From: Candidatus Multivoradales bacterium
GTDB taxonomy: Bacteria > Acidobacteriota > Thermoanaerobaculia > Multivoradales > JAHEKO01
Assembly: GCA_965223855.1 (NCBI GenBank)
Contig: CBDCXM010000009.1
Span: 336,142-400,141, forward strand
DNA length: 64,000 nucleotides
Reading direction: 5' to 3'
Shown: one piece after another, positions 26,405 to 52,995 of the stretch
How the letters are laid out: every line of letters starts with the position of its first letter
Position numbering within the stretch: position 1 is the stretch's first letter
Made by a program: the position numbers and the translations under genes
Notes under the pieces: generated by a model
Databases searched by the model: none
What the model was told of the DNA's origin: nothing
What the model saw: the letters and a program-made list of their open reading frames with translations, nothing else

Positions 26405-26507
26405 CGGCGAATCGTATCAACGGCTTCGCCCCACGACTGTGGCAAACGAGGCTTCTCTCGCGACCTGCGCCAGGTCGTCGTCTCCCCGTCTCGTAACATG
26501 GCCGACA

Positions 26508-28686: not shown

Positions 28687-29403
28687 TCAGCGCTCGGAGG
28701 CGGCTTCGATCCGCCGGGCCTGCTCGAGCTGCGCCTCGATGTTGGCGAGCCAGGCACGGCCGTCGGCGGTGCGCGCCAGGAGTTGCATCGCCGGCTCGCA
28801 GTAGCGCTGGACGATCTTCGAGAAGAAGTGCGGGAAGTCCGCTTCGAGGTCCCGCGGGCTACCGTAGCCGAGGCGTTCATTGACGCCCGTTTCCTCGAAC
28901 TCGTAGTAGAGCGCCGGGTAGCGGCGGCGGGCGTGCGGCTCCGCCACCTGCCCGAGCAGATCGGCGGCGCGCGCGAGCCCCGGGAGGTCTTCGACCTCCT
29001 GGTAGGCGTCCTTTTCGGGCACCGGGAAACGGGTCCGATCGATGCAGGCGGTCATCCGCTCGACGTCGAGCAGCGGATGGCTCGCGAATCGCTCGCAGAC
29101 GAACTGGATGGCGCGATCGACGTGGTAAGGGCCGAGAGCGGCGTCGGTCGCCTCGAGGGGAAGCTCGACCACCGCGTCGCCGATCCCGGTCGCTCGGCGA
29201 CCCGGGTCGTCACCGCGGCACAGATCCGGCACGTAACCGATGTCGTGGCACAGGAGCGATGCGAGGACGTCCAGGCGATCGCAGGCCGGCACGGTTCCGC
29301 TCCGGTCGAGCCCTTCGAGGACCGCTTTGCCGACGAGGGTGACGAGCACCGTGTGGTGAGCGTTGTGGTAGAGCGCGTTGCACGAGGCCAGCCGCCCCAG
29401 CAC
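28687..29403 (-). CDS. HD-domain metal-dependent phosphohydrolase
   Basis: H...HD signature (YHNAHHT, LLCHDIGY). GTG 29403 as in the ORF track. The frame stays open upstream, so an alternative GTG at 29583 would add about 60 aa and overlap the OmpA-like gene end. Confidence 0.5.
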   Translation of the reverse strand: MLGRLASCNALYHNAHHTVLVTLVGKAVLEGLDRSGTVPACDRLDVLASLLCHDIGYVPDLCRGDDPGRRATGIGDAVVELPLEATDAALGPYHVDRAIQFVCERFASHPLLDVERMTACIDRTRFPVPEKDAYQEVEDLPGLARAADLLGQVAEPHARRRYPALYYEFEETGVNERLGYGSPRDLEADFPHFFSKIVQRYCEPAMQLLARTADGRAWLANIEAQLEQARRIEAASER

Positions 29404-29540
29404 CTCGACCGCGATCTCCCGCAGCGCGGCCGCATGCTCCCCCGCTTCGGGATCGGCCGCGAGAAAGCCCGCCTCCAGCCGCTCGGCGACGAGTTCGACG
29501 AGGGCGGCGGAAGGCTCGAACGATGGCGCCCCGCCGCCGA

Positions 29541-30215
29541 TCAGCGCACCCTGACGACGACCCTGCGATTCCGCGGTTCGCGCACCCCGTCTCCCGTCGG
29601 CACCGCCGGTTGCGATTCACCGAACGCCTCGATGGCGATCGCCGCTGCAGGGACACCGGCCTCGATCAGCCTGTCGCGCACCGCTTCGGCCCGTCGCCGC
29701 GACAGGCCGTCGTTGAGCGTCTCGGTCCCCGAAGTGTCGGTGTGACCGGCCACCCGGATCGCCGCAGTCGCACGCTGTCGGAGGTCTTCGAGCAGCTCGT
29801 CCATCGCCCCGTCCGCCCCGCCCGCCAGCCGGGTCGTGCCGAGCTCGAAGAGGACGGTCCAGTCCGTCGGAGCGGGAGGCTCGTGCTCGATCGCCGGAGA
29901 AAAGCCGAGCTCGAGCCCGTCGACCTCCACCGTGCGGATGTCACTCAGATCGTCGAAGGAGACCGCCTCGTAGGCGGAGTCGAGCAGCGCGCTCTCGCCG
30001 TCGCGCGTCACTTCGATCGCGCCGACAGTGCCGTCCTCGTCGGGCAGCAGGACGACGTACTGGCGCCATTCGGGCTCCTCCTCGACCGGCTCTTCGCCAC
30101 CAAGGAGCGGCAGCACCACCGAGTCAGGCGGCCACCAGTGGACCGGCACCCGCTGCGCGGCACAACCTGGAAGCAGGAGAGCTCCGATCAGCACGACCGC
30201 CCGCGCTCGGTTCAT
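29541..30215 (-). CDS. OmpA-family peptidoglycan-binding lipoprotein
   Basis: Lipobox LLLPGC. C-terminal OmpA_C-like domain (RVAGHTDTSGTETLNDGLSRRRAEAV, NRRVVVRV). Confidence 0.65.
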   Translation of the reverse strand: MNRARAVVLIGALLLPGCAAQRVPVHWWPPDSVVLPLLGGEEPVEEEPEWRQYVVLLPDEDGTVGAIEVTRDGESALLDSAYEAVSFDDLSDIRTVEVDGLELGFSPAIEHEPPAPTDWTVLFELGTTRLAGGADGAMDELLEDLRQRATAAIRVAGHTDTSGTETLNDGLSRRRAEAVRDRLIEAGVPAAAIAIEAFGESQPAVPTGDGVREPRNRRVVVRVR

Positions 30216-30658
30216 TCGGCTGCGCTCTCCAACCTCACGAGAAATCGCGTGCCTCGGATCCCGATCGTGCCGACCGGGGTCTCCACGTTCGCCGATTCGG
30301 GCGACAGCTTGGCGATCAGGCCGGAGACGTAGAGCAGCGTGCCGCGGGCGAGGCGGGAGAGGAACGCCCCCTCGCTCGCACCCGCCTCGTAGACGTACTC
30401 GTCGATCGTGAGACTGGTGTCGGGGCCGATCGACAGTCGGGAGTCGTCGATGAACAGCACCCCCAGGGCGCCGTCGGATCCGGTCTCCAGGGTGTCGTCC
30501 TGGAACACCGCGGCGCCCAGCTCGGCAGCGCTGCGCTCCCCGCCCGACACGATGAAGGCACTTCCACTCAACTCCTTGACGTGGCCGACGGGCTCGGACG
30601 CCGCGACGGCACCGGCCGAGAGGACCACGAGAACCAACCAGAGACGGCGATGCATCAC
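30212..30658 (-). CDS. FecR-domain secreted protein
   Basis: Signal peptide. FecR-like beta-sandwich sequence (SGSAFIVSGGERSAAELGAAVFQDDTLETGSDGALGVLFID). ATGA overlap with the OmpA-like gene. Confidence 0.55.
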   Translation of the reverse strand: MMHRRLWLVLVVLSAGAVAASEPVGHVKELSGSAFIVSGGERSAAELGAAVFQDDTLETGSDGALGVLFIDDSRLSIGPDTSLTIDEYVYEAGASEGAFLSRLARGTLLYVSGLIAKLSPESANVETPVGTIGIRGTRFLVRLESAAE

Positions 30659-30784
30659 CTCTCCCTTCCCTTCAGATGGCTGTTACACGACCCTCACAGA
30701 ATAGCACCGCCACCTCGCCGGGCAGCTGCCGACAGCGCCACACAGGTCGAAAAATCGCTATGACAGACTACCGACACCCTACCC

Positions 30785-32596
30785 ATGGCAGATATGGCAG
30801 GTCACACCACAGGCCGCGTCCTCCTCGCCATCGCGCTCGTCGCGGTGATGGCGCCCGCTGCCTGGTCCCAGGAGGAGACGGCGCCGGTCCGCACCGCCGA
30901 CGAGGAGCACGCGGCGCTCTTCCTCGAAGACCGCTTCCCGGCCGCCACGACCTGCGCCACCTGTCACCCCGACCACTACCGCGAGTGGTCGGTGTCGCCG
31001 CACGCCTACGCGCAGATGAGCCCCGTTTTCAACGCCATGCACGGGACGATTCTCAAGCTGACCAACGGCACGAACGGCGACTTCTGCATCCGCTGCCACA
31101 CGCCGGTGGGGATGAACCTCGGCGAGCCCGAGTTCATGAGCAACATGGACCGCCACCCGACCTCGCGGGAAGGGGTCACCTGCATCGTCTGCCACCGGGT
31201 CAATCGCGCCTACGGCAAGCTCAGCGGACGGCTGGCGATCGTCGAGGGCGACGTCTTCGACACCGTCTACGGACCGACCGGAGGCGAGGAGCTCGAGCGG
31301 GTGATCGACAGCTCCGAGTTTCGCGTCAACACCGAGCGGGGGCAGGCCGGGCGGGCGATCCACGCCGAGGCGGAGCCGTTCTTCCAACTCCGAGAGGCGG
31401 GCATCTGCGGAACCTGCCACGACGTCAACCTGGTGAACGGCTTCCGTCTCGAGGAGGCGTTCAGCGAGTTCAAGACGTCACCGGCCGCGCGCCGGGGGGT
31501 GACGTGCCAGGACTGCCACATGGGGACGGAGCCGGGAATCGCCTCCGGGTTCCGCCAGGGGCCGGCGGCAATGATCGGCACCCGGCCGACCGCCGAGCGC
31601 CGGCTCACGAATCACATGTTCATCGGGCCGGATTACTCGATCGTCCACCCGGGGATCTTCCCGCACAACACCCGGGCCTCCGAACTGGCGACGATCCGCG
31701 ACTGGCTCCAGTTCGACTGGGAAGCGGGCTGGGGCACCGACGCCTTCGAGCTCGAAGCGCCGGAGGACTACGAGTTCCCCGAGGTGTGGGCCTCCGCCGA
31801 CGACCGCTACGACGCCCGCGACATCCTCGACGCCAACCTCACGCTGCTCGACGAGGCCAACCAGGCGCGCCTCCAGCTGCTGCGCGCCGGTTACGTTCTC
31901 GGGGACACGAAGGTCGAGAAGAAGGGTCGCGGGCTCGCCTTCTCGATCGAAGTCCGCAACGCCACCGACGGTCACGGCGTGCCGACCGGCTTCGACGCCG
32001 AGAGGCTCGTCTGGCTCGAAGTGACGGTCGCGGACGCGGACGGCGAGGTCGTCTTCCGCTCCGGCGATCTCGACCCGAACGGCGACGTGCGCGACCTGCA
32101 CTCCCTCTACGTCCACAACGGCGAGCTGCCTCTCGACCGCTACCTCTTCAGCCTCCAGTCGAAGTTCCTGACCCGGATGGTGCGGGGCGGCGAGCGCGAG
32201 CAGGTGCTGGCGATCAACTACTCGCCCGACCCTCTGCCGTTCCTGCGACCCTCGGTCACCTCGACGATCCTCACCGGGAGACCTCGCGGCGCCCGCAAGC
32301 ACAAGCAGAACCTCGCTCCGCTCGGTCACCGCGTGGCGCGCTACGAGGTGCCGGCGGCCAAGCTCACCGGGCGCCCGCCGTACCGGGCCACGTTCCGGCT
32401 CAAGGCGGCGATGGTGCCGGTGAATCTGGTCCACGAAATCAAGGACGTCGGGTTCGACTACTTCATGAGCGCTCGCGACGTCGCCGAGCGAGTGGTGGCA
32501 GGCCATCTCGTCCTCTGGGAACGACAGCTCGCCCTCGAAGACGGTGCCGAACCGCCCCAAGCCGAAGAAGCCGTGGATGCCGCCGCGTCGCCCTAG
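30785..32596 (+). CDS. multihaem c-type cytochrome, 5 CxxCH sites, periplasmic
   Basis: Signal peptide. CATCH, CIRCH, CIVCH, CGTCH and CQDCH were counted directly in the translation. Confidence 0.75.
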   Translation: MADMAGHTTGRVLLAIALVAVMAPAAWSQEETAPVRTADEEHAALFLEDRFPAATTCATCHPDHYREWSVSPHAYAQMSPVFNAMHGTILKLTNGTNGDFCIRCHTPVGMNLGEPEFMSNMDRHPTSREGVTCIVCHRVNRAYGKLSGRLAIVEGDVFDTVYGPTGGEELERVIDSSEFRVNTERGQAGRAIHAEAEPFFQLREAGICGTCHDVNLVNGFRLEEAFSEFKTSPAARRGVTCQDCHMGTEPGIASGFRQGPAAMIGTRPTAERRLTNHMFIGPDYSIVHPGIFPHNTRASELATIRDWLQFDWEAGWGTDAFELEAPEDYEFPEVWASADDRYDARDILDANLTLLDEANQARLQLLRAGYVLGDTKVEKKGRGLAFSIEVRNATDGHGVPTGFDAERLVWLEVTVADADGEVVFRSGDLDPNGDVRDLHSLYVHNGELPLDRYLFSLQSKFLTRMVRGGEREQVLAINYSPDPLPFLRPSVTSTILTGRPRGARKHKQNLAPLGHRVARYEVPAAKLTGRPPYRATFRLKAAMVPVNLVHEIKDVGFDYFMSARDVAERVVAGHLVLWERQLALEDGAEPPQAEEAVDAAASP

Positions 32597-34022
32597 GGGC
32601 TTGCTGAGGAACCCTCGTGGGTCGCGCGCCGGCCTCATCTTCGCCGCCGCGACGCTGATGGCGACGGCGATCGGCGCCGCCGAGCCTCCCACCGAGGGAG
32701 ACGGCGAGAGCGCGAGCCGCCTCACCGACGAGGCGATCCCACTGCAGGTCGATGCGGTACCCGAGCGGCCGAAGCCGCCCCTCGAGCTCGGCGAACCGTT
32801 CCTCGGCACCGGCACCCTGCGCCCCGGCTTCCGACTGCCGACCGGCGCCGTGTGGCAGCCGGCGCTCGTCGCTTTCGGCTCCCTGAGGACCGCGGCCCAG
32901 AGCTTCGACTCCGGCGCCGGCAGGGTGAGCGAGCTCGTCGCCCGGTTGGACCTCTTCGCCAACCTTCAGCTCTCGGGAACGGAGCGCGTGGTCGTCGGCT
33001 TCCGGCCGCTCGACCGCGACGGTCGCTTCACCTCGTACGTCTTCTCGAGCGACGTCCCGGGGATCGAGGACGGGTCCCGCGACGAGTGGAACGGCGAGGT
33101 GACGAGCGTCTACTTCGAGGGAGACTTCGGCGAGATCTTCCCCAATCTCTCGAAGGACGACTTCAGCCGCACCGACGTAGGTTTCTCGGCCGGCCGTCAG
33201 CCGCTGATCTTCCAGGAAGGGATGCTGATCAACGACTCGATCGACGGCATCGGGTTGACCCGCAACACGCTTCAGCCGGGCAATCTGTCGAACTTCCGCG
33301 CCACGCTCTTCCTCGGCTTCGACGAGGTCGGCCGGCCCGACCGCATCGACGACGACGCGCGGCTCGTCGCGCTCCTGACCTCGACCGATACCAGGAGGTC
33401 GACCTGGGACGTCGATCTCGCGTGGGTGGAATCGCAGGTCGAGGGAGACCTCCTGGCCGGCGGGATCAGCGCGATTCAGAGACTCGGGCACTACAACACC
33501 GCGTTTCGACTGCTCGGCTCTTCAGCCCTCGACCGGGAAAGCGACCTCGTCTCCGACGGCTGGCTGCTGCTCAACGAGGTGTCGTGGACGCCGCACCACA
33601 GCCACGACCTCGTCTACGTCAACACCTTCGTCGCCGCCGACCGCTTCTCGTCCGCGGCGCGCGGGCCGAGCACCGGAGGCCCGCTCGGGCGCGCGGGCAT
33701 CAACTTCGCTGCCGTCGGGCTGGGCAACTACGGCGCGGCGCTGAGCTCGGAGGCCGAGGACGTCGCCGGCGCGGCGGTCGGCTACCAGCGCTTCTTCGAT
33801 CACACCCGCAAGCAGCTCCTCGTCGAGGCTGGCGCGCGTCTCGGCACCCGTTCCGGGAGCGCCGACTCCGCCGCCGTCACCGTGCGGTTTCAGACCGCGC
33901 TCAAGCGCCACTACGTGCTGGTGCTCGATGCCTTCGGCGGCTACCGCGACCCGGGACCCGCAGCACCCGGCGGCCGGCAGGAGCTACTCGGTGCGCGGGT
34001 CGAACTGGTGACGAAGTTCTGA
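32577..34022 (+). CDS. outer-membrane beta-barrel (porin-like) protein
   Basis: ATG 32577 (alternative GTG 32544). N-terminal signal peptide. Alternating amphipathic strands. C-terminal residue is Phe (TKF), as in bacterial OMPs. Overlaps the upstream cytochrome by 20 nt and the downstream one by ATGA. Confidence 0.55.
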   Translation: MPPRRPRGLLRNPRGSRAGLIFAAATLMATAIGAAEPPTEGDGESASRLTDEAIPLQVDAVPERPKPPLELGEPFLGTGTLRPGFRLPTGAVWQPALVAFGSLRTAAQSFDSGAGRVSELVARLDLFANLQLSGTERVVVGFRPLDRDGRFTSYVFSSDVPGIEDGSRDEWNGEVTSVYFEGDFGEIFPNLSKDDFSRTDVGFSAGRQPLIFQEGMLINDSIDGIGLTRNTLQPGNLSNFRATLFLGFDEVGRPDRIDDDARLVALLTSTDTRRSTWDVDLAWVESQVEGDLLAGGISAIQRLGHYNTAFRLLGSSALDRESDLVSDGWLLLNEVSWTPHHSHDLVYVNTFVAADRFSSAARGPSTGGPLGRAGINFAAVGLGNYGAALSSEAEDVAGAAVGYQRFFDHTRKQLLVEAGARLGTRSGSADSAAVTVRFQTALKRHYVLVLDAFGGYRDPGPAAPGGRQELLGARVELVTKF

Positions 34023-36061
34023 TGGCGGCCGCCCGCCTCCTCGGCCCGGCGGTGGCCGGTCTGCTCGCGATCGGCCCGGTGGCGGCGGCCGAGACCCCGG
34101 CGGCGCGCGACCCGGCGAAGATCGTCACCGCCGAGGCGTGCGGCGAGTGCCATCTCGAGGAGTTCGAGGTGTGGAAGACGACGCCTCACGCACTCGGCTT
34201 CAAGTCGCTCCACCGCAGCGCCGACGCTGAAGAGATCGCGCGCAAGATGGGTCATCGGCTCATCAAGCGCGACAGCCCCTGCCTCGAATGTCACTACACG
34301 ACGGCACTCGACGGCGAGCGCGAACGCGCGGTGTCGGGAGTGTCGTGCGAGTCGTGCCACGGCGCCGGCCGCGACTGGATCGAGGTACACAACGACTACG
34401 GCCCCGACGCCACCTTCGCCACCGAGACCGACGCCCACCGCGAGCAGCGAATCGCCGCCAGCCGAGCGGCCGGGATGCTGCGGCCGACCGACCTCTACGA
34501 GGTGGCCGCCAACTGCTTCGGCTGCCACACGGTGCCCAACGAGGAGCTCGTCAACGTCGGCGGCCACACGACGGGCAGCATCGGCTTCGAGCTGGTCGAG
34601 TGGTCGCAGGGCGAGATCCGGCATAACTTCGTCGCGGCGCAGCGGGGCGGGAGCAAGGAGAACGTCGAGCGCTCCGACGAGCGCAAGCGGCTGATGTACG
34701 TCGTCGGCCGATCGCTCGAGCTCGAGTACGCGCTGCGCGGACTCGCCAAAGCGACCGAGGACGGGGCCTACGCGAAGTCGATGATCCGCAAGGTTCGCAA
34801 CGCGGTTGCCGAGGTCGGCGACATCGCGGCGGTCACGACCCTCGCGCCGGTCAACACCATGACCGCCGCGGTGCGCGAAGCCCGGGTCAGCCAGGGGAAC
34901 GCAGCCGAGCTGCTGGCCGCCGCCGATCGGGTGAGCGCGGCGACCAGAGCGCTGCTCCGGGAGCCGGCCGGCGCGCAGGTGGCGGCCCTCGATCCTCTGA
35001 GACTCGGCCAGCCGCTCCCGGGGACGGATCAACTCGCCGAGGACGAGCGCGAGGGCCTCGAGGACCCCGTCGAGGGCGCGGCCGAGACCGTCCCGGCGGC
35101 CGTCGCCGCGGCGGCCGCACCCGGAGAGCCCGGCGCCACCACCGCCGGCGCCGGCAGCGGTCGGAGCGTGCCCGACTACGCTCGCAAGACCCGGCTGCGA
35201 CCGACCTCGCCGCACCGCACGATCGACGCCGGCGCGTGCAGCGGCTGCCACGAGGAGCAGAACGCCTGGTGGTTCGACGACCCTCACTACGCCGCCGCCG
35301 AGCCGTTTCACGAGGGCGATCCGAAGAACGCCCAGATCGCCCGGCTCTACGGGCTCGCGGCCGGCGAGGCGACCAGGGGAAACCAGCTGTGCATGGACTG
35401 TCACGGCACGGTCGTCACCGGCAAGGAGCGCCGCGAAGTGTGGGACGGGGTGAGCTGCCAGAGCTGCCACGGTGGCGCCGCCGACTACCTCGAGCCGCAC
35501 AAGGAAGGGGACGAGACGGCCGGAGATCAGCGCAGCGGCTACCTCGCCGCACTCGGTCTCGGCATGAAGGAGCTGCGTCGTCCCGAGGTGCGGGCGCGCA
35601 ACTGCGCGAGCTGCCACTACATCACCGACCCGCGTCTGATCTCCGCCGGGCACCCGACCGGCAGGGACTTCCGGATCGTCGAGCGGATGCCGCGGATTCG
35701 CCACTGGGAGCGGGCCGATCTCGACGCCTCCGCCCTCGAGAGCGCCTTCCGCGACGAGGTGGCACGGCGAGGAGCGATTCCCGAGGTTGTCCTCGCCTCG
35801 CTGCCGGCGGGAGAGTCGCCGCTCGCCGCCGCTGCGACGGCGACGCGGACCCGCCGCGCGGGAGGGGGCTCCCGCCCCGTCAGAGCCCTGCCGCCGCGAC
35901 AGCGACCGGTCGATCCGATCGCCATCCCGGACCCTGCGAGCGTCGGCCCGCTCGACCTCCCCCCCTTCGACCCTCCGGCGGACGACGCGCCGCTCGAGGA
36001 GGTCCTGGCGCTGATTCAGCAGCGACTCGCCCTCATCTACGAAAACGTTCAGGAGCCGTGA
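34022..36061 (+). CDS. multihaem c-type cytochrome, 8 CxxCH sites
   Basis: Signal peptide. CGECH, CLECH, CESCH, CFGCH, CSGCH, CMDCH, CQSCH and CASCH were counted directly. Confidence 0.75.
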   Translation: MAAARLLGPAVAGLLAIGPVAAAETPAARDPAKIVTAEACGECHLEEFEVWKTTPHALGFKSLHRSADAEEIARKMGHRLIKRDSPCLECHYTTALDGERERAVSGVSCESCHGAGRDWIEVHNDYGPDATFATETDAHREQRIAASRAAGMLRPTDLYEVAANCFGCHTVPNEELVNVGGHTTGSIGFELVEWSQGEIRHNFVAAQRGGSKENVERSDERKRLMYVVGRSLELEYALRGLAKATEDGAYAKSMIRKVRNAVAEVGDIAAVTTLAPVNTMTAAVREARVSQGNAAELLAAADRVSAATRALLREPAGAQVAALDPLRLGQPLPGTDQLAEDEREGLEDPVEGAAETVPAAVAAAAAPGEPGATTAGAGSGRSVPDYARKTRLRPTSPHRTIDAGACSGCHEEQNAWWFDDPHYAAAEPFHEGDPKNAQIARLYGLAAGEATRGNQLCMDCHGTVVTGKERREVWDGVSCQSCHGGAADYLEPHKEGDETAGDQRSGYLAALGLGMKELRRPEVRARNCASCHYITDPRLISAGHPTGRDFRIVERMPRIRHWERADLDASALESAFRDEVARRGAIPEVVLASLPAGESPLAAAATATRTRRAGGGSRPVRALPPRQRPVDPIAIPDPASVGPLDLPPFDPPADDAPLEEVLALIQQRLALIYENVQEP

Positions 36062-36062
36062 C

Positions 36063-37697
36063 GTGAGCGAGCCGTTCGAACCGGGCAAGACCGTGCTCAA
36101 GCAGATCGAGCAGTACGGCGACCGCTGGAGCGCCTACGGCGCGAGCGAGAGCATCGTCTCGATCTCCGACAGGCTCACCCTCGAGGAGATGAGGGAGATC
36201 GACGTCTTCTCCGACTACGACGACTCGTTCCTCGAGAAGATCCGCTCCGACGTCTCGGTGGCGGTGTGGAAGCCGGACTCGGTGCTGTTCGAGGAAGGGA
36301 GCTACATCGACCTCGCCTTCGTCGTCCTCGAGGGAGAGGTCGAGACCTTCGTCGCCGGGATCGGCAAGGGTGAAGCGACGCCGCAGCCGATCTTCGACGC
36401 CACACGCACCGTGCTGGGCGACGCCGAGACCACCCTGGCGGCCGAGCGCACCACACTGATGCCGACGCTCTCGCCGCCGAGGCGGGCGCCGAAGGAGATC
36501 ACGCTCCTCGCTTCGATGGACTTCGACATGCCGCGCGAAGGCACCGTGAGACTCGGCCCCGGCGAGGTGTTCGGCGAGATCGGCGCCCTGAGCGGCTGGC
36601 CTCAGTCGGTGACGGCACGGACCGTGACCGAGTGCCGTCTGGTGCAGATCCGGATCAACGCGCTCAGGCTGATGAAGCGCAAGTCCGCGGCACTCAAGGA
36701 GCGCCTCGACGAGCGCTACCGCGAGCGCTCGCTGAGCGCGCAGCTGCGGACGACGCCGCTCCTGAGGCGCTCGAGCCCGCTGGTGATCGAGGCGCTCAAG
36801 GACGAGGTCGAGCTCGTCTCCTGCGAGCCGGGAGAGACGGTGCTCACCCACGGCGACGAGCCCGACGCGCTCTATCTGGTGCGCTCCGGCTTCCTCAAGC
36901 TGCTGCAGCCGCTGGCCGACGGTCAGATCGCCGTCTCGTACCTGTCGAAGGGGATGACCCTCGGCGAGGCGGAGCTGCTGCTGCCCGAGATCGACGGCTG
37001 GCAGGTCAGCGCCGAATCGGTCGAGTACAGCGAGCTGGTGCGGATCCCGGCACCGGTCTTCGACAATCTCCTGCGCAACGAGCCGCTGATCGAAGCCGAT
37101 CTTTGGGCGTCGGCTCAGGAGCGCATCCGCGAGTCCGGCTTCGCGCGGCGGCACATCGGTCACGCGGAGTTCCTCCAGGAGGCGCTCGACACCGGGCTCG
37201 TTCAGGGCAACAGCATCCTGGTGATCGACCTCGAATCCTGCACCCGATGCGACGACTGCGTGCGCGCCTGTGCCGACACGCACGAGGGGCGCCCCCGCTT
37301 CGTGCGCGAGGGAGACAAGTACGCCAACCTCCTGATCGCCAAGTCCTGCTACCACTGCCGGGATCCGGTCTGTCTCGTCGGCTGCCCGACCGGCGCGATC
37401 CATCGCGCCGGGCTGAGCGATGTCGTCGAGATCGAAGACGAAATCTGTATCGGCTGCGCGAGCTGTTTCCGCAACTGCCCGTACGACGCGATCGTCATGC
37501 ACGAGACCGGCGACCTGTGGCCGGACGACATGATCCCGGTCGGGCTGCGAGGGCGCGATCGCCAGGTCGCCAGCAAGTGCGACCTTTGTGCCGACACCGG
37601 TCACGGGCCGGCGTGTGTCAGCAACTGCCCTCAGGGTTGCGCCTACCGGGTCGGATCGCTGGAGGAGTTCCAACGGCTGATGAGCGGGGAGAGCTAG
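36063..37697 (+). CDS. tandem cyclic-nucleotide-binding domains fused to a 2x[4Fe-4S] ferredoxin-type domain
   Basis: GTG start 1 nt after the cytochrome stop. Two CAP-like cNMP-binding segments (GEVFGEIGAL; LGEAELL). Cys clusters CTRCDDCVRAC, CYHCRDPVCLVGCP, CIGCASCFRNCP and CDLCAD. Confidence 0.7.
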   Translation: MSEPFEPGKTVLKQIEQYGDRWSAYGASESIVSISDRLTLEEMREIDVFSDYDDSFLEKIRSDVSVAVWKPDSVLFEEGSYIDLAFVVLEGEVETFVAGIGKGEATPQPIFDATRTVLGDAETTLAAERTTLMPTLSPPRRAPKEITLLASMDFDMPREGTVRLGPGEVFGEIGALSGWPQSVTARTVTECRLVQIRINALRLMKRKSAALKERLDERYRERSLSAQLRTTPLLRRSSPLVIEALKDEVELVSCEPGETVLTHGDEPDALYLVRSGFLKLLQPLADGQIAVSYLSKGMTLGEAELLLPEIDGWQVSAESVEYSELVRIPAPVFDNLLRNEPLIEADLWASAQERIRESGFARRHIGHAEFLQEALDTGLVQGNSILVIDLESCTRCDDCVRACADTHEGRPRFVREGDKYANLLIAKSCYHCRDPVCLVGCPTGAIHRAGLSDVVEIEDEICIGCASCFRNCPYDAIVMHETGDLWPDDMIPVGLRGRDRQVASKCDLCADTGHGPACVSNCPQGCAYRVGSLEEFQRLMSGES

Positions 37698-38546: not shown

Positions 38547-40127
38547 ATGGCGGCTAAGCGTCGGCAGGGGAAGGGCTCCTACGGCCGCTGGCAACTGCCG
38601 GTGGCGAGGCGCTATCTCGTCCCGGGGTCGAGGGGGCGTCGGATGGTCCTGGCGGCCGCGCTCTTCGCGCTCATCCTGGCCGCGGTGGCGGCAGACTTCC
38701 GGCTGCGGCGCGGCAAGGCGCTCTCCAAGGGCGCGCTGTCGTCGCACCACGCCCTCCAGGAGCAGGACTGCGCCTCCTGCCACGTCGAGTTCGATGCGGT
38801 GAGCGACGACCGCTGCTCCTCGTGCCACGAGAAGTTCGGCGATCAGCTCGGCGTCTACACCTTCGCCGCTCACTACCTGTACCGGTCGACCGACTTCCAG
38901 CGCGTCGTCGCCTCGGAACACGAGCTGCCGTGCTCCTCCTGCCATCTCGAGCACGCGGGGCGCGAAGCTCAGATCACCCGCGTACCGGATTCGCGCTGTC
39001 TCGACTGTCACGAATACGGCGCCTTCGGCGACGACCACCCGGAGTTCGCCTTCGCGCGGGAGGAGGCCGCCGAGGCGGGCGGCCTGCACTTCCCTCACAT
39101 CGAGCACATTCGCGAAGTGATGGCGCAGCAGAACCTGCACGACGTCGAGCGGTCGTGCCTCTACTGTCATCGGCCGGAGGCGGACGGGCGCTCGTTCCAG
39201 CCGATCGAGTTCGATCTCCATTGCGACTCCTGCCACCTCACGACGACTACGGCGACGCCGCGGCTGCCGATCGCAGGAGAGGCGGGCGAGGAGGATGGTC
39301 CCGGAGTCGAGACGCTGGAAGCAATCCGCGCTCGCGGCGGCCCGGGCACGGAGTGGGCCTACTACACGAACCCCAACGAGTTCCGCCGCACCGGGCCGCG
39401 GATCCTCAAGTCGCCGCTGCATCACGAGGATCCATGGATTCTCGACAACCTGCGCCGGCTGCGGCGCGAGCTCTATCCCGACGCCGGGCTCGCCGACCTC
39501 CTGACCGCCTCCCCCGATGCCCCGGTGCATCGATTGAGCGAGGTCTACGGCGAGGCGATCGCCACCCTGCAGTCACAGGTCGACGGCCTGCGTGCCCGCC
39601 CCGAGCCGGAGATCCAACGTGACCTCGCGAAGCTCTCCGCGCTCCTGACCGAGGCGGAGCGGAGCCTCCTCGATCCCTATACCCCCCTCGACGAGACCGA
39701 GTTCCAGCTCGCCCTCGAGCGACCCGATCCGAATCTGTCGGCGGAGCAAGTCGACTCGATCGACCGCCTCGCCGACGAGCTGACGACGCCGTGCCGCCAG
39801 TGCCACATCGTCGAGAACGCCACCCTCGCCCGGGTCCAGACCGATCAGCGGACTCTCCTGAGCGCCGAGTTCGACCACCGCGCCCACATCCTCCAGCGGC
39901 GCTGTCTCGACTGCCATCGCGAGATCCCCGTACTCGAGCACCTGAACTCCCCCGAGCCGGTCGATCCCGCGATCGACAACGCCGGCATTCACAACCTGCC
40001 GCGCATCGAAGCGTGCCGGGAGTGCCACCAGCCGCGCCAGGTCTCGGACCGCTGCGTCACCTGCCACGTCTTTCATCCGGACAAGAACCGGCGATCGGAA
40101 CTGCTGCTCTACCTGGAGACCGGCTGA
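38547..40127 (+). CDS. membrane-anchored multihaem c-type cytochrome, 10 CxxCH sites
   Basis: N-terminal TM anchor (MVLAAALFALILAAVAADF). Ten CxxCH motifs were counted (CASCH, CSSCH x2, CLDCH x2, CLYCH, CDSCH, CRQCH, CRECH, CVTCH). Confidence 0.75.
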   Translation: MAAKRRQGKGSYGRWQLPVARRYLVPGSRGRRMVLAAALFALILAAVAADFRLRRGKALSKGALSSHHALQEQDCASCHVEFDAVSDDRCSSCHEKFGDQLGVYTFAAHYLYRSTDFQRVVASEHELPCSSCHLEHAGREAQITRVPDSRCLDCHEYGAFGDDHPEFAFAREEAAEAGGLHFPHIEHIREVMAQQNLHDVERSCLYCHRPEADGRSFQPIEFDLHCDSCHLTTTTATPRLPIAGEAGEEDGPGVETLEAIRARGGPGTEWAYYTNPNEFRRTGPRILKSPLHHEDPWILDNLRRLRRELYPDAGLADLLTASPDAPVHRLSEVYGEAIATLQSQVDGLRARPEPEIQRDLAKLSALLTEAERSLLDPYTPLDETEFQLALERPDPNLSAEQVDSIDRLADELTTPCRQCHIVENATLARVQTDQRTLLSAEFDHRAHILQRRCLDCHREIPVLEHLNSPEPVDPAIDNAGIHNLPRIEACRECHQPRQVSDRCVTCHVFHPDKNRRSELLLYLETG

Positions 40128-40465
40128 TGGGAGCGCGGCTGCTGTGCAAGACCGGCAAGCTGGAGGGGCTCGAGTTCTCGCTCGGCGAAGAGACGACCGT
40201 GGGTCGCCGCCGCTCGAGCGACGCGGTGGTCGACGCCCCCGGGGTTTCGGGCACGCACGCGACGATCCGCTGGTCGGAGGAGGGCGGCCGCTACGAGCTC
40301 GAGGACCTCGGCAGTACCAACGGCACCCTGCTCGACGGCGTCCCCGCCCAGGGCATCGAGCCTCTCGGGACCCTGCACGTCATCACCTTCGGGCGGCACC
40401 ACAGCTTCATCTTCGTGTGGGACGGCGCGACCCCGACCGGCACGACGAGCGCCGAGGAGGAGTAG
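40127..40465 (+). CDS. small FHA-domain protein
   Basis: ATGA overlap with the decahaem gene. FHA signature (TVGRRRSSDAVVDAPGVSGTHATI...DLGSTNGTLLDG). 112 aa. Confidence 0.6.
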   Translation: MGARLLCKTGKLEGLEFSLGEETTVGRRRSSDAVVDAPGVSGTHATIRWSEEGGRYELEDLGSTNGTLLDGVPAQGIEPLGTLHVITFGRHHSFIFVWDGATPTGTTSAEEE

Positions 40466-45490: not shown

Positions 45491-46597
45491 CTACTTGTGA
45501 GAGGTGCACACCGGACCGCGAATGAAGACGTCCAGCGTGTACAGGATCTTGTCGTTCGGGGTGACGACCCAGTCGATCGAGGGCCGCCACGACGTTGCAC
45601 CCGGGACGAATCCCGAAGGAAGTGTTCCCGACGCAGGGGTCGTCCTCCCCTCGTCCGGGTCGGTCTCGTCTTCGAGGTGACTGCTGAACTCGGCGTGATC
45701 GAGCACCCAGCCGTTGCTCAGAGAGATCTGGTACCGGTCGGTGCCCGAGTCGTCACCGATCGTCCCCCAGCAGTTCTCGTGAGAGGCGCGGATGGTCGGC
45801 GGCGGCGATCCCACGACGACACCTTCCTGGATGCCGAGGATGTCGGCGACCCCCCACTGACAGGAGCCCTCGAAGCTCGCGCCGGTGCAGCCACCGGCGT
45901 TGGCGTCCCGACCGCACTCGAGGTTGACGACGTCCTCGGTCGGGAACTGACGGACTTCGGTCGGTACCGGCACGGGAAAGACCGGCGACAGCTTTCCGTC
46001 GGCCGTCTCGATCTGAATGCCGAAGACGCAGTTGTCGTGAACGCCGGCCGGCACGAGGCCGCCGATCGCGTCATCGAACCAGTTCTCCACCTCGAGTTGG
46101 TGGCTCGTCGTCGGCGAGGCGATGAACCACACCTTGCCCGCCTGATCGCCGAAGCCGCTGCCACCGACCAGCAGACCGAGCCCCGGCGTGATCCCGAAGC
46201 CGAAGATCCGCTCGATGCGGGGACCCGGTATGTACTCGAACCCGCGCTCGAACTCCCGGCGTTCGAGCCGGATCCGCACGGAGATCTGGATCTCGTCCTG
46301 GCCGACGATGTTGCAGTCGCCCGACGTCACCCGCGCCGGGAAGCTGCCCGGGCTGTCGTAGACGTGGTCGAGGTCGGCCAGCGGCAAGGCGGCGTTGTTG
46401 AAGGCGTCCGAGTCGCCGTCGCCGTAGTCGAGCGTGACATCGCAGATGCCCTGCCCCTCGACCCGGAAGGTGACCGTGTCGCCGACGAAGACCGAAGCCG
46501 GGTTCGCGGAAATCCCCGAAACAAAGTCCTGCGCCAGCGCCGGCGAGCTGACGATCCAGAGCGTCGCCGCGACGCACCCCAACAGGCGGTTCCTCAT
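45491..46597 (-). CDS. hypothetical secreted Cys-containing protein with PKD/Ig-like N-terminal segment
   Basis: Start at internal ATG 46597 with AAAGGGGGG Shine-Dalgarno and signal peptide (MRNRLLGCVAATLWIVSSPALA). VFVGDTVTFRVEGQG...DYGDGD resembles a PKD domain. The upstream part of ORF 45491..47725 is antisense to the deaminase gene. Confidence 0.45.
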   Translation of the reverse strand: MRNRLLGCVAATLWIVSSPALAQDFVSGISANPASVFVGDTVTFRVEGQGICDVTLDYGDGDSDAFNNAALPLADLDHVYDSPGSFPARVTSGDCNIVGQDEIQISVRIRLERREFERGFEYIPGPRIERIFGFGITPGLGLLVGGSGFGDQAGKVWFIASPTTSHQLEVENWFDDAIGGLVPAGVHDNCVFGIQIETADGKLSPVFPVPVPTEVRQFPTEDVVNLECGRDANAGGCTGASFEGSCQWGVADILGIQEGVVVGSPPPTIRASHENCWGTIGDDSGTDRYQISLSNGWVLDHAEFSSHLEDETDPDEGRTTPASGTLPSGFVPGATSWRPSIDWVVTPNDKILYTLDVFIRGPVCTSHK

Positions 46598-46686
46598 AGT
46601 CCCCCCTTTTGAACTGAGAGCCCTCATTGTCTCAGATGGGGGCGAGACTCCTGTGGTCTGCGTTACAGGACGCGTGTCGACCCGCC

Positions 46687-47169
46687 TCAGGCGATCTCGG
46701 TCACCCGCTCGTCCTGCGGTCCCTCGACCGCCTCGACGGCCACCCCGTGCGCGCGCAGATAGTCGACCCCGTTGGCGCCCGCGTAGCCTCCGCCGACGAC
46801 GACCACCTTGGTGATGCCCGCGTGGTGAATCAGTTTCGCGCACAGCACGCATGGCTCGCCGGTGACGAGCAGCCAGGCTCCCTGGGTGGCGACGCCGGAA
46901 GCCGCACAGTTGCAGATGACGTTCATCTCCGCATGGTGGCAGCCGATCTCCATCCGCGTTCCCGACTGCACCCCGAGCTCGTCGCGCGAGCAGACATCTC
47001 CGCCGCACAGATCCCCGCCGCCGCGCGGACCCCCGTTGTAGCCGTCCATCAGGGTCACGTTGCGGCTCGGGTCGAGCAACAGAGCCCCGAACTTTCGCCG
47101 CGGGCAGTTCGACGCCTTGGCGAGCGCCAGACACTGCTCGATCCGGATGCGGATGTGTTTTTCTTTCAA
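46687..47169 (-). CDS. dCMP / cytidine-deoxycytidylate deaminase family protein
   Basis: Zinc-binding CDA signature (CHAEMNVI...PCVLCAKLI). Confidence 0.7.
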   Translation of the reverse strand: MKEKHIRIRIEQCLALAKASNCPRRKFGALLLDPSRNVTLMDGYNGGPRGGGDLCGGDVCSRDELGVQSGTRMEIGCHHAEMNVICNCAASGVATQGAWLLVTGEPCVLCAKLIHHAGITKVVVVGGGYAGANGVDYLRAHGVAVEAVEGPQDERVTEIA

Positions 47170-47377
47170 CTCGAAATCTCCTCCGCGCCGATCTGTTGCG
47201 GCACCCGATGCTGTGTCGCCTCAACGAACAGAGCCTCGCCGAACTCTTGGGTGGCTCGCTCTCGAGGAGAGAACGGCCCTCGTGCGACGAGGGAACGATA
47301 GCAGCGACGCCTCTCACTGAACTCCGGCTCCGTGGCGTTGTAGTCTTCTCAGCAAATCTGTCGAATTGGAGAAGTTG

Positions 47378-48382
47378 ATGGACGTCGAGCGATACCAGCG
47401 CGCCGCAGCCAGTCCGGCGTTGTACCTCTGCCTGCTGGGCCTGGCACTCGGGGTCGCAGGGTGCCCTCCGACCACGGTCCCGCCGTCGGCCCCGCCGCTC
47501 CCTCCGGAGCTCGATTTCCCCGCCGCCTACAGGGTCCAGGCCGCCGGACAGGTCCAGGTGGACACGATCGAGCTGCCGGGGACCGCGACGATGGACTATC
47601 TCGTCTACCCGAGCGGTCGGGTGGTCGTCACGCATCTCGACGTCCGGGTCCCGGACCTCGACATCGTCGTCTACTTTCTCTGGTGGGAGACCGACCGAGA
47701 GCGGCTGCGATGCAATCGGATGCACCTGACCGAGCCGGTCGTCGCCAGCCTGGTCGGCGATCGGATCGATTTCGCTGTCGGATCGGCCGCGATGCGGGGG
47801 GTGTCGTTCTTTGAGCGCTCGCCCTCGGGTGATTGCTCAGGGCGCCACCGGCGACTCGAGGTTTCCAACGACGGCGTGTTCTCCGTCCTGCACGACCCCG
47901 ACATGCCGAAGTGGGAGATGCGTGCCGCCTTCACGGCAACCTTCGACGGCAACAGCGTGCCGCTCGACTTCCGACTCGACGGCCGGTTTCTGAACCGGCC
48001 GCCGATGGCGTCGATGGGCGTCGCCGAGGCGGGCACGACGAGCTGGGAGCTCATCGGCGAGGGATGTCCGGTCGCCCAGGAGGAGTCCAAGATCCCGCCG
48101 AACCGTCCGGAGGGGCTGGTGCTCGATCTGCGTTCCTTCTCCTACGACAACGACAGCCGCGAAAGCGAGACCCGCTTTCAGGTGAAGTTCCCGCGTGGAG
48201 ACATCAGCACCGAGCAGTGGGCCAAGTCGAGCGGCGGCAAGTACGAGTACCTGGGCGAGGGCCGTCTCCTCGGACCGGTTCTCTTCGAGGCGGGCAAGGC
48301 CCATTCGCTGATGCTGACCGTCACCGATCGCACCGGGGCCAAGGCCCGACAGATCTGCCAGTTCGAGGTTTCGCCGTCATGA
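47378..48382 (+). CDS. hypothetical lipoprotein
   Basis: ATG 47378 with GGAGA Shine-Dalgarno. Lipobox LALGVAGC. No recognised domain. Confidence 0.5.
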   Translation: MDVERYQRAAASPALYLCLLGLALGVAGCPPTTVPPSAPPLPPELDFPAAYRVQAAGQVQVDTIELPGTATMDYLVYPSGRVVVTHLDVRVPDLDIVVYFLWWETDRERLRCNRMHLTEPVVASLVGDRIDFAVGSAAMRGVSFFERSPSGDCSGRHRRLEVSNDGVFSVLHDPDMPKWEMRAAFTATFDGNSVPLDFRLDGRFLNRPPMASMGVAEAGTTSWELIGEGCPVAQEESKIPPNRPEGLVLDLRSFSYDNDSRESETRFQVKFPRGDISTEQWAKSSGGKYEYLGEGRLLGPVLFEAGKAHSLMLTVTDRTGAKARQICQFEVSPS

Positions 48383-49707
48383 GCTCACTCCTCTCCCGGA
48401 TCCACCCTCGCTCCTTCGCGCTGCCGCTCCTTCTCCTCGTCGGCGCAGTCACGCCCGGCTGCGGCTTCTTCATCGACGAGTTCATCCCGCGCGGCCCGTC
48501 GCTCGAGTGCACGGCTCAGGTCCGCAGCGCAGACGGCCATGTCGAGACGATCTCCAGCCTCACCCACCCCGACTTCGTGGAGATCGTCACCAGTGGCGGT
48601 ACCACCGAGACGGCACAGCTGCGCGAGTACTTCCTGTGTGAAGCCGGCAGTTGTCCCGCTCCCGATGCCTGCCCCCGCTTCTCCTCGATCGCCAACGCGG
48701 AGGCGGACTGGGAGTCCTGGCTCGGCCTGCGGGTTCGTGGCCAGACCGCCGAGCCGACCTCCGTGTTCGGCCAGTTCGAAGGCCCGTGGTGCCTCGTCCC
48801 GGACACGATCGTCTGCACGGAAGCGGCCTTCCAGGAAGGCTACGGCGATTGCGGGCTGCTCCCGTCCGTCGATCGGTTGCCGATCTGCCCGGACGCTCCG
48901 CCGCCACCGCCCGGCGATCCGTGCCTCGAGATCGCCTGCAGTGGTGGCGTACCCTGCACCTCGGTCGACTTCGGTGACCTGCCGCTCGGCGGCACGGCGA
49001 CCGAAACGGTGACCGTGAGCAACTGCGGCGCCACCGCCAGCCCCGATATCGCACTGGTGCTCGACGGCGAGATCCTGCCGGACCTCGCATTCGGACAGCG
49101 CGACTTCGCGGTCACCCGTAACGACTGCCTCCCCGACACCCCGGAAGAGATGCTGGCGGGCGAGGAGATCCTCACCAACCCGTTGGTCGACGCCGTCAAC
49201 TCGCGCTGCGAGTTCGACGTCACCTTCGCACCCGAGAACCCGCGCGAGCACGGTGCCGAGATCGCCTTCCGCAGCGACCTCGACCCGCGCCACCAGATTG
49301 TCCTCAGGGGCAACGGCCTCGGCGGAAGCCTCATCTTCGAAGTGCCCGATCTGCCCGACCCGCGGGCGATTCCGCCGGCGATCTGCGTCGATGCGGTCGT
49401 CGGGAGCTGCACGCGCAGCCGCATCGTCCGGATCACCAACACCGGCCCGGGTGCGGTCACGATCACCGACGTCCGTCTCGACCGCGGGGCTCCGAACTGG
49501 CAGGTCGTCATGCCGACGGGCGCGGCCCTGCCGGTGACCCTCGGGCCGGCCGATCCCCCCTTCGACGTCACGGTGCGCTGGTGCACGAGCGCCCCGCCGG
49601 AAGAGCTGGACGGTCAGCTGGTCATCGACACGAACTCTCCCGACACCCCGACCTTCCTGCTCGGGCTCAACCGACAGGGCAGCGGTACCTGCCCGCCCGG
49701 AACCTGA
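48379..49707 (+). CDS. hypothetical Cys-rich lipoprotein
   Basis: ATGA overlap with the preceding lipoprotein gene. Lipobox GAVTPGC. Many Cys, and a PPPPPGDPC stretch. Confidence 0.5.
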   Translation: MSSLLSRIHPRSFALPLLLLVGAVTPGCGFFIDEFIPRGPSLECTAQVRSADGHVETISSLTHPDFVEIVTSGGTTETAQLREYFLCEAGSCPAPDACPRFSSIANAEADWESWLGLRVRGQTAEPTSVFGQFEGPWCLVPDTIVCTEAAFQEGYGDCGLLPSVDRLPICPDAPPPPPGDPCLEIACSGGVPCTSVDFGDLPLGGTATETVTVSNCGATASPDIALVLDGEILPDLAFGQRDFAVTRNDCLPDTPEEMLAGEEILTNPLVDAVNSRCEFDVTFAPENPREHGAEIAFRSDLDPRHQIVLRGNGLGGSLIFEVPDLPDPRAIPPAICVDAVVGSCTRSRIVRITNTGPGAVTITDVRLDRGAPNWQVVMPTGAALPVTLGPADPPFDVTVRWCTSAPPEELDGQLVIDTNSPDTPTFLLGLNRQGSGTCPPGT

Positions 49708-49765
49708 CGCCAGGAACCTGGTGCTCGACACCTGACGCTCGGAGCCTGGCGTCGGTATCCGGGGC

Positions 49766-52871: not shown

Positions 52872-52995
52872 CCGCTCCCCGCGGGAACCAGCCGAGCCTG
52901 TGCGGAGTCGAAGCCGACGCAGTTGTGCCGAGCGACCTGAGACCGCTTCCAACGACACCGAACCCGAATCCCGAGCCAACCCTGGAGACCGACCG

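Follow-up and report, generated by a model that had tools for sequence, protein, structure and literature searches.

A small FHA-domain protein as a candidate phosphothreonine-reading subunit of a multihaem cytochrome system in Candidatus Multivoradales and its relatives in other phyla

The 64,000-nucleotide stretch of Candidatus Multivoradales DNA analysed here (contig CBDCXM010000009.1, positions 336,142 to 400,141; hereafter the window) carries an operon of multihaem cytochrome genes that ends in a gene for a 112-residue protein with a forkhead-associated (FHA) domain. Domains of this kind recognize phosphothreonine (pThr). We found that the FHA gene is all but obligatory in a gene cluster that recurs in at least six phyla, and that in the relatives it usually encodes a longer adaptor with two FHA domains, frequently accompanied by a flavoprotein that itself carries FHA domains and by a receptor-type Ser/Thr kinase. 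Based on these results, our preference, a modest one, is that the 112-residue protein is a working pThr-reader subunit of the predicted electron-transfer system. The explanations weighed against this one overlap with it in part.

The FHA gene and its conservation across phyla

The gene is an intact open reading frame (ORF) of 112 codons at 40127-40465 on the plus strand. Its ATG (40127-40129) overlaps the TGA of the preceding decahaem cytochrome gene (40125-40127) by one shared base, an A, and a GGAG within that gene, 8 nt 5′ of the ATG, may serve as the Shine-Dalgarno sequence. The GC content by codon position is 0.66/0.52/0.95, which is a coding signature in a window of 68% GC. No second FHA ORF was found in any frame of the 64 kb window, and no terminator-like or sigma-70-like site was detected around the gene. 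An earlier note on this DNA, made from the sequence alone, had described an FHA mini-protein translationally coupled to a decahaem cytochrome at the 3′ end of an electron-transfer operon. The coupling, the ten haem motifs of the cytochrome (exactly ten CxxCH) and the terminal position of the gene were all confirmed: the operon consists of seven plus-strand genes, the FHA gene being the last, with spacings of -1 to +15 nt except at one uncertain start.

The Pfam FHA model (PF00498) matches residues 23-89 with E=1.4e-15 and 57.9 bits (cut-off 20.7), and the match spans the whole model (profile positions 1-67 of 67); the Yop-YscD_cpl model matches the protein too. The residues that contact pThr are complete, namely G26-R27, S41-x-x-H44 and S63-x-N65-G66-T67, and they line up with their GarA counterparts in the alignment. 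Thus the GR and SxxH elements, whose presence the earlier note had left to be verified, are in place, and so is the NG element. The AlphaFold (AF2) model, obtained with 54 orthologues in the alignment, has a mean predicted local distance difference test (pLDDT) value of 91.7 and consists of a beta-sandwich at residues 1-100 (strands across 4-97), followed by a disordered stretch at 101-112. The 14-residue C-terminal tail is DGATPTGTTSAEEE. A Foldseek search against PDB placed OdhI at the top (8p5x_G and 4qcj; 33% identity, root-mean-square deviation (rmsd) 1.5-1.6 Å, TM-scores 0.78/0.84), followed by GarA, FhaA, ArnA, CT664, EmbR and DgcB, and gave a probability of 1.00 to more than 100 FHA structures. 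Since the pThr residues are all present, the model is confident and Foldseek matches OdhI and GarA, the protein is securely assigned as a canonical FHA domain that is complete and is followed by a tail of 14 residues. Judging by these residues, the protein probably binds pThr peptides.

Related loci were collected with the decahaem cytochrome as the anchor in a scan of the species representatives of GTDB, which yielded 80 loci. They belong to Acidobacteriota (Thermoanaerobaculia, Holophagae, Vicinamibacterales and 'Ca. Multivoradales'), Rhodothermales, Bacteroidota/Cytophagia, metagenome-assembled genomes labelled Ignavibacteria/Chlorobi, KSB1 and Gemmatimonadota, and one of them is carried by the cultured Sulfidibacter corallicola M133 (NZ_CP071793.1, about 1.025-1.038 Mb). 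The decahaem cytochrome gene is present in all 80 loci, the FHA gene in 76, the gene for a protein with five transmembrane helices (5-TM) in 75, the flavoprotein gene in 67 and the gene for an iron-sulfur (FeS) protein in 63. The FHA ORF follows directly after the decahaem gene, at a distance of -11 to +182 bp and often with an ATGA overlap (76/80 loci). Where the gene order is permuted (L024 and L078), it stands after the 5-TM gene and is still flanked by the membrane module on one side and the flavoprotein gene on the other. Of the four loci without an FHA gene, three are contigs that end too early. The fourth, L003 (JAPUJD010000025.1, 3529-6973), is the sole true FHA-less locus with room for the adaptor; it also has no flavoprotein gene, and a receptor kinase gene adjoins the decahaem gene there, 8 bp away. 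With 76 of the 80 loci placing it behind the membrane cytochrome module, the FHA gene belongs to the cluster as a near-obligate member and is not an accidental neighbour. All-against-all clustering of the ORFs of these loci revealed a protein kinase as the sole further conserved neighbour. A PP2C-type phosphatase was found neither in the 38 Pfam-scanned ORFs of the window nor in the genes conserved beside the cluster.

Full-length adaptors, the reduced window copy and kinases at the cluster edge

In the relatives, the FHA gene usually encodes a protein of 270-410 residues, which includes an FHA domain (N-FHA), a disordered linker and a second canonical FHA domain (C-FHA). The residues G, R, S, H, S, N and T of the C-FHA are conserved at 96-100%. 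In the N-FHA, the Arg is kept in 68% of the proteins (Lys in 18%), the Ser in 88%, the His in 96% and the Asn in 87%. The N-terminus of the N-FHA follows the consensus MxARLFCKTG (M1 97%, A3 97%, G10 94%), and the corresponding residues of the window protein are MGARLLCKTG.

The 112-residue protein aligns with the N-FHA from residue 1 and is 44-47% identical to residues 1-97 of the adaptors of L002 and L052. Because of this identity, the shared N-terminus and the position directly after the decahaem gene, the sequences identify it as an orthologue of the adaptor N-FHA. It scores 133 bits with the family hidden Markov model (HMM) of the N-FHA, ranking 65 of 77, and clade relatives with full-length adaptors score alike (L002, 130; L004, 129; L008, 126). 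By sequence, then, the window copy is a lineage-specific minimal form of the FHA-linker-FHA adaptor, and the N-FHA that it has kept is the most conserved part of the adaptor. The term 'mini-protein' used in the earlier note is right for the gene, which is real and encodes 112 residues; it needs to be amended in that the product is a truncated form of a longer adaptor. Shorter forms with a single FHA domain occur elsewhere in the family (L006, L032, L074, P0269, P0295, P0307 and P0361; 154-219 residues), and the four that were read (P0269, P0295, P0307 and P0361) retain the linker motifs described below.

The linkers (n = 70) contain much Pro, Ala and Glu, and their median length is 99 residues. 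Across phyla, they share the motif [E/G]-[K/R/G]-T-x-[I/V/L/F/M]-[D/E/G]-x5-L-P-x-x-L, which is present in one to four copies per linker. Altogether, 86 instances were counted in 46 of the 70 linkers, versus 3.5 +/- 1.9 in shuffled linkers; this contrast is indicative and provides no probability, because the motif was defined after viewing these same, mutually related sequences. FHA domains read sites of this type, in which an acidic or hydrophobic residue stands at position +3 from a Thr. Examples of linkers bearing the motif are found in the adaptors at L061:3830-4894, L022:5186-6196 and L027:11685-12929. In the AF2 model of one two-FHA orthologue, both domains are confident, and the linker has pLDDT values of 59-71 with short helical turns at LPxxL.

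The next gene in 67 of the 80 loci encodes a flavoprotein of about 750-800 residues with a thioredoxin reductase-like FAD/NAD(P) domain (Pyr_redox_2), two FHA domains and a [2Fe-2S] ferredoxin domain, in this order. Its homologues number in the hundreds and are annotated just as 'FHA domain-containing protein' or 'FAD-dependent oxidoreductase'. The second FHA domain is as canonical as the adaptor C-FHA, as read from L002 (the family alignment is shifted there by 1-2 columns), and the first FHA domain does not have the Asn. The two-FHA adaptor is kept without the flavoprotein in L008, L023, L045 and L073, which demonstrates a flavoprotein-independent role of the adaptor. Conversely, L006, L032 and L074 have one FHA domain and the flavoprotein. 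With these two groups of loci the pattern is inconsistent, and a co-loss of the C-FHA and the flavoprotein was rejected. An apparent 918-residue fusion of the N-FHA with the flavoprotein (L036:11639-14395) was rejected, since it arises from stretches of masked N in the sequence record.

Genes for Hanks-type kinases are adjacent to the cluster in many loci. Of the 35 flanking kinase ORFs, 26 start no more than 1 kb from the cluster edge, where only 25% of the usable flank lies (binomial p about 1e-9, phylogeny uncorrected). Among the 51 loci whose downstream flank extends over 2.5 kb or more, 22 have a Hanks kinase gene as the next one downstream. The kinases at the cluster edge are of the receptor type and show two architectures that track the phylum. 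In Acidobacteriota, the kinase domain (Pkinase) is combined with a C-terminal TonB_C-like domain, and the gene is convergent with the cluster. In Rhodothermales and Ignavibacteria, it is combined with PEGA domains, and the gene is co-directional with the cluster.

The idea of the earlier note that phosphorylation controls the assembly or regulation of the electron conduit is therefore supported by conservation as regards synteny, the pThr-binding residues and the kinases at the cluster edge; the replaced Arg in part of the N-FHA domains, discussed below, tells against it. At the level of sequence, conservation across phyla strongly supports the view that phospho-dependent recognition belongs to the electron-transfer system.

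Operon products, proposed mechanism and rival explanations

The features of the window that bear on the proposal are listed in the table, together with examples from the relatives.

Table. Positions of the cytochrome operon, the FHA gene and the signalling genes in the window, and of flavoprotein and edge-kinase genes in related loci (L-numbers)
Feature	Coordinates	Strand	Basis
Hanks-type Ser/Thr kinase with canonical C-terminal cNMP-binding domain	25004-26404	-	Pkinase E=6e-38, cNMP_binding E=1e-23
CHASE2-domain adenylate/guanylate cyclase, divergent from the kinase	26133-28685	+	CHASE2 E=1e-52, Guanylate_cyc E=3e-16
Minus-strand operon: ORF of no family	28687-29403	-	
Minus-strand operon: OmpA-family protein	29541-30215	-	
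Minus-strand operon: FecR-domain protein	30212-30682	-	
Pentahaem c554-like cytochrome, secreted, C-terminal domain of ~300 residues; first operon gene	30785-32596	+	sequence, Pfam Cytochrome_C554
Putative outer-membrane beta-barrel, signal peptide, C-terminal ...VTKF	32544-34022	+	deduced from termini
Octahaem cytochrome, secreted, two c554-like tetrahaem modules	34022-36061	+	Pfam Cytochrome_C554 E=5e-24
Cytoplasmic FeS protein, two CNB-like (cNMP_binding fold) domains, four [4Fe-4S] motifs	36063-37697	+	Pfam cNMP_binding x2, Fer4 families
5-TM protein, putative dihaem cytochrome b, cytoplasmic helical domain of ~110 residues	37701-38531	+	alignment
TM-anchored decahaem c-type cytochrome, haem domain periplasmic	38547-40127	+	CxxCH count, Pfam Cytochrome_C7 and c3
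GGAG, Shine-Dalgarno-like (putative function), within the decahaem gene	40115-40118	+	read from sequence
TGATG stop/start overlap, decahaem gene to FHA gene	40125-40129	+	read from sequence
112-residue FHA protein	40127-40465	+	Pfam FHA, AF2 model, family HMM
Flavoprotein, examples	L002:12491-14767; L052:12500-14863; L081:10001-12301		
Cluster-edge kinase, examples	L002:14786-16597(-); L003:5084-6973(-); L015:15077-17338; L058:13931-16048		

None of the operon proteins scored above an NCBIfam cut-off. The decahaem cytochrome carries its haem motifs behind a basic tail and one N-terminal transmembrane (TM) helix, and none of its 429 homologues is more than 59% identical to it. Within the cytoplasmic tail (residues 1-33, 38547-38650), K9, G10, L17, Y23, P26 and R29 are nearly invariant, a hint that the tail has a binding partner in the cytoplasm. 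The 5-TM protein has no relative in Pfam, NCBIfam or PDB sequences, the matches of a profile search against the latter being at chance level. An alignment of 28 orthologues revealed four invariant His, H86/H100 in TM3 and H255/H269 in TM5. Because the members of each pair are 14 residues apart, as would be expected with two stacked b haems, the 5-TM protein is probably a dihaem cytochrome b of an unrecognized family. Its cytoplasmic helical domain is conserved as well.

The FeS protein has no export signal. In its first domain resembling cyclic-nucleotide-binding (CNB) domains, a Gln (Q181, 98% conserved) occupies the position of the Arg that binds the cyclic phosphate, within FGEIGALSGWPQSVTA, and the phosphate-binding cassette of the second CNB-like domain is degenerate. 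Due to both features, cAMP or cGMP is a doubtful ligand of this protein. The first CNB-like domain also holds a variable, disordered, low-complexity insert with Thr residues (T116 and T130/T131). The octahaem protein possesses a signal peptide and eight CxxCH motifs, and the start of its gene overlaps the preceding stop as TGATG. That preceding ORF, for which the true start is probably further downstream (gene about 32580-34022), had no match in Pfam and only chance-level matches in a profile search against PDB sequences. Its gene stays beside the cytochrome genes in the related loci, and the termini, a signal peptide and ...KF, suggest an outer-membrane barrel.

Based on these features, we suggest the following path. 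Electrons would pass from the cytoplasmic four-cluster FeS protein through the 5-TM dihaem-b-type protein to the TM-anchored periplasmic decahaem cytochrome, and then by way of the secreted octahaem cytochrome to the pentahaem cytochrome and the putative outer-membrane barrel, possibly ending outside the cell. The 112-residue protein would act on the inner-membrane module as a cytoplasmic pThr-reader subunit. In the relatives, a kinase-controlled multivalent scaffold of pThr sites and FHA domains would dock or release a cytoplasmic carrier of the NAD(P)H side at the membrane module. In the window, the N-FHA would bind the membrane module itself, as a small regulator in the style of OdhI and GarA.

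The most economical reading of the sequences is that the N-FHA contacts the membrane module, and this is probably so. Candidate sites for a phosphorylation-dependent contact lie in the FeS insert, where the semi-conserved motifs PIFDxSRT(V/M)xG and (G/K)T(V)(L/F)(M/F) recur and are represented in the window by RT116VLGD and ERT130T131LMP. The pattern [KR]T.[IVLMFY][DEG] is present in 16 of 62 FeS inserts versus 1.5 in shuffles. The 5-TM protein offers a further candidate, RT234KLEF, in its cytoplasmic domain, and the decahaem cytochrome another, its conserved tail in the cytoplasm.

Several observations weigh against a working pThr-reader. The Arg of the N-FHA is replaced in about 30% of the orthologues, and Arg27 showed no covariation with T10 or T116 of the FeS protein or with T200 of the 5-TM protein. 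In the AF2 model of the two-FHA orthologue, the linker motif was docked on neither FHA domain. The proposed path includes an outer-membrane barrel and haem b sites that we infer from termini and His spacing. Furthermore, the window copy is the shortest among the best 150 of the 1.84 billion representatives searched, differs from the consensus of the family at three positions (R46T, D50S and Q97V), and is accompanied by no linker motif, second FHA domain or flavoprotein in any frame of the window and by no receptor kinase beside the cluster.

The latter observations are what a remnant would show. By this explanation, a deletion or rearrangement brought the convergent MgtC and MarR genes, which now lie 54 bp after the FHA stop, close to the operon and eliminated the linker together with the C-FHA, the flavoprotein and the kinase, so that a stub is translated that has little or no function. 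The protein is uniquely short, no relative of fewer than 172 residues being found among the best 150 representatives; no relative in the whole set is more than about 53% identical, and a word-indexed homologue search returned the self-match only. When the L002 flavoprotein was used as the query, the 3,226,005-bp contig of the window was not among the best 120 matches (all at least 53% identical), which suggests that the flavoprotein is lacking from this genome. The three family-conserved positions that are changed point the same way, and L003 shows that the cluster can exist without any FHA gene. However, the ORF is intact over the whole domain and conservation extends to F96, the pThr residues are kept, and AF2 models the protein with confidence. 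With the family HMM it scores as high as clade relatives with full-length adaptors, the third-position GC content (GC3) is 0.95, and both the start overlap and the Shine-Dalgarno-like sequence are preserved. In addition, the adaptors that persist without a flavoprotein in four loci speak for a function that does not require it. We consider a functionless stub unlikely.

A second explanation is that the FHA domain belongs structurally to the cytoplasmic face of the complex, independently of phosphorylation, and that the nearby kinases are irrelevant to it. There are precedents in the FHA folds of YscD and EssC and in the binding of GarA to KGD through a phosphomimetic Asp, and the match to the Yop-YscD_cpl model fits them. 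The Arg of the N-FHA is conserved in just 68% and is K or S in the types of Ignavibacteria, Cytophagia and KSB1. No strictly conserved Thr is present in the cytoplasmic parts of the FeS, 5-TM and decahaem proteins outside structural motifs, and an adjacent kinase gene occurs in under half of the loci. On the other hand, the window protein and its clade retain every canonical residue, the adaptor C-FHA and the second FHA domain of the flavoprotein (FHA-b) are canonical at 97-100%, the linkers bear motifs built around a Thr, of the pT-x-x-[D/E/I/L] type recognized by FHA domains, and the kinases are strongly biased to the cluster edge. A purely structural role is accordingly given a low probability, and we keep to the proposal of a pThr-reader subunit.

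The remaining question is which kinase would write the marks. The earlier note had counted two Hanks-type kinases in the window, one of them with a domain binding cyclic nucleoside monophosphates (cNMP), and both were recovered. The first (Pkinase, 2-466, minus strand) is cut by the window edge, and the second, at 25004-26404, is the sole complete kinase. Its phosphate-binding cassette, FGETAIMTSEPRTASVV, keeps its Arg. The gene is divergent from that of the CHASE2 cyclase, the true start of which is probably near 26430, and by sequence this pair (25004-28685), 4.4 kb upstream of the cytochrome operon, looks like a bacterial cNMP-dependent protein kinase module. The minus-strand operon at 28687-30682 and the first cytochrome gene are transcribed away from each other, their starts being 103 bp apart. 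FecR-domain genes often partner CHASE2 sensors.

The kinase at 25004-26404, to which the earlier note gave a role, is real, and its cassette is canonical. Its link to the operon is circumstantial, because no related locus has the CHASE2-cyclase/cNMP-kinase pair within 10 kb. It is quite unlikely that this kinase, driven by the CHASE2 cyclase, phosphorylates operon proteins whose marks the FHA protein reads: its cassette, its divergence from the cyclase, its distance from the operon, the FecR/OmpA-family operon divergent from the first cytochrome gene and its being the only complete kinase of the window favour it, but neither a cNMP-kinase nor a CHASE2 cyclase lies within 10 kb at any related locus, the cluster-linked kinases elsewhere are membrane receptor kinases with TonB_C-like or PEGA domains, and the invariant Gln in place of the Arg in the FeS protein makes a shared cNMP signal doubtful.

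Other genes of the window include one for an HlyD-family membrane-fusion protein followed by two for AcrB-family RND transporters of about 1,100 residues each (11368-19641; GC3 0.93-0.96). Two PQQ/BamB-like beta-propeller proteins are encoded at 52900-54336 (plus strand) and 54633-56033 (minus strand), and near them are long ORFs without a Pfam match at 45491-47725 (minus strand), 47366-48382 (plus strand) and 48385-49731 (minus strand).

Relation to known systems and significance

The closest described arrangement is that of Ferrigenium straubiae. Its 'NHC' (IMG 28784098774; bioRxiv 10.64898/2026.01.22.701106, section 6.3.2; May 2026) is a nonahaem cytochrome that has a single TM helix and carries a fused FHA domain in the cytosol, and it is encoded beside a motif-less 5-TM protein and a cytosolic [4Fe-4S] protein; the authors state that FHA domains and multihaem cytochromes had not been reported together before (10.64898/2026.01.22.701106). 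The two systems, compared by description only, are alike in the triad of a [4Fe-4S] protein, a 5-TM protein and a single-TM multihaem cytochrome with an FHA domain on the cytoplasmic side. They differ in that the FHA domain is fused to the cytochrome in Ferrigenium and is encoded by a separate, translationally coupled gene in the window. Moreover, the Ferrigenium host is an Fe(II)-oxidizing betaproteobacterium, and the description of its cluster mentions neither a flavoprotein nor a linker motif nor an outer-membrane module. In a pangenome table of Gallionellaceae, a 10-CXXCH 'forkhead-associated protein' is listed in 27 genomes (PMC9900912).

Among the 150 best relatives of the window FHA protein, no protein containing CxxCH was found. 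By analogy, the Ferrigenium fusion may provide independent support for a physical association of FHA domains with cytochromes. If the Ferrigenium and window systems are homologous, the fusion would be gene-fusion evidence for an FHA domain at the cytoplasmic end of the cytochrome. In Ferrigenium, the fused FHA domain occupies the place that the N-terminal cytoplasmic tail has in the decahaem cytochrome.

The closest solved structures are OdhI and GarA (sequence E about 1e-6; rmsd 1.5-1.6 Å; 28-33% identity). In Corynebacterium and Mycobacterium, these are small stand-alone FHA regulators of a large redox enzyme complex, switched by Hanks kinases through a Thr-bearing tail. In contrast, the fold of the window protein starts at residue 3 with no N-terminal ETTS extension, its C-terminal ...TGTTSAEEE tail resembles the ETTS phospho-acceptor only loosely, and the partner of its gene is a cytochrome/FeS membrane module, not 2-oxoglutarate dehydrogenase. 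The protein reaches 31.2 bits with the OdhI equivalog model NF041660 of NCBIfam, versus a cut-off of 200. Thus it is not a member of the OdhI/GarA family, and by analogy it may act in a similar mode.

Rv1747, an ABC transporter of M. tuberculosis, has a regulatory module in which a disordered linker with Thr phospho-acceptors joins two FHA domains; the module acts on a membrane complex, and a Hanks kinase is encoded in its neighbourhood. This architecture is shared by the full-length orthologues and not by the window protein, which has one FHA domain and no linker. No sequence relationship with Rv1747 was found beyond the FHA fold, and clustering or phase separation in the present family is conjecture.

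The chain itself resembles NarHI and the Tmc, Hmc and DsrMKJOP complexes of sulfate reducers, in which a cytoplasm-facing multi-cluster FeS protein and a membrane protein with paired His are connected to a periplasmic multihaem cytochrome c. The NCBIfam matches to such components (DmsB, DsrO, HmcB, DsrJ and QrcA) are weak, all far below the cut-offs; the window FeS protein differs in its two CNB-like domains and the 5-TM protein in having no Pfam or PDB relative. We know of no FHA proteins in these complexes. With MtrCAB and the Geobacter Pcc/Ext systems, the operon shares a gene order in which a secreted multihaem cytochrome is encoded next to a secreted protein whose C-terminus is of the outer-membrane type, and more periplasmic multihaem cytochromes come after them. 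The NCBIfam thresholds for MtrA, MtrB, MtrC, DmsE and ExtKL were not reached; with the MtrA/DmsE, MtrC/OmcA and MtrB/OmbB families, the scores were 23-37 bits versus cut-offs of 192-325.

A full-text literature search combining FHA, multihaem cytochromes and extracellular electron transfer gave nothing relevant. The multihaem/beta-barrel cluster of Thermoanaerobaculia reported by Flieder et al. (2021), with NHL-repeat and peptidyl-prolyl isomerase genes, is a different cluster, and the FHA mentions in PMC10734482 refer to the haemagglutinin FhaB/FhaC and not to FHA domains. The earlier note's statement that such an association is undescribed for extracellular electron-transfer systems was therefore nearly true, the exception being the FHA-nonahaem fusion in the May 2026 preprint. 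Apart from that one preprint paragraph, the system as a whole, comprising the adaptor, the FHA-reductase-ferredoxin protein, the receptor kinases and the FeS/putative dihaem-b/multihaem chain, is undescribed.

The cluster may, as a tentative generalization that we hold possible rather than probable, represent a widely distributed and so far unrecognized class of trans-envelope conduits, of which the window would hold a reduced copy. In these, an NAD(P)H-side reductase would be joined to an FeS/dihaem-b/multihaem-c chain through a multivalent pThr-FHA scaffold, with periplasm-sensing receptor Hanks kinases as the writers, and the export of electrons would be switched post-translationally. Clustering as in Rv1747 would possibly be a further property of that class.

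The cluster is uncurated in Pfam and NCBIfam, although its carriers include lineages with an abundant presence in sediment and soil (Acidobacteriota, Rhodothermales, Ignavibacteria, KSB1 and Gemmatimonadota). The idea is directly testable because the cultured Sulfidibacter corallicola M133 has the cluster. Extracellular electron-transfer and trans-membrane chains are usually seen as transcriptionally regulated. The pThr-reader subunit, the FHA domains of the reductase and the receptor kinases at the cluster edge would point to post-translational gating and, if the proposal is true, electron flow in these bacteria would instead be gated rapidly by Ser/Thr phosphorylation.

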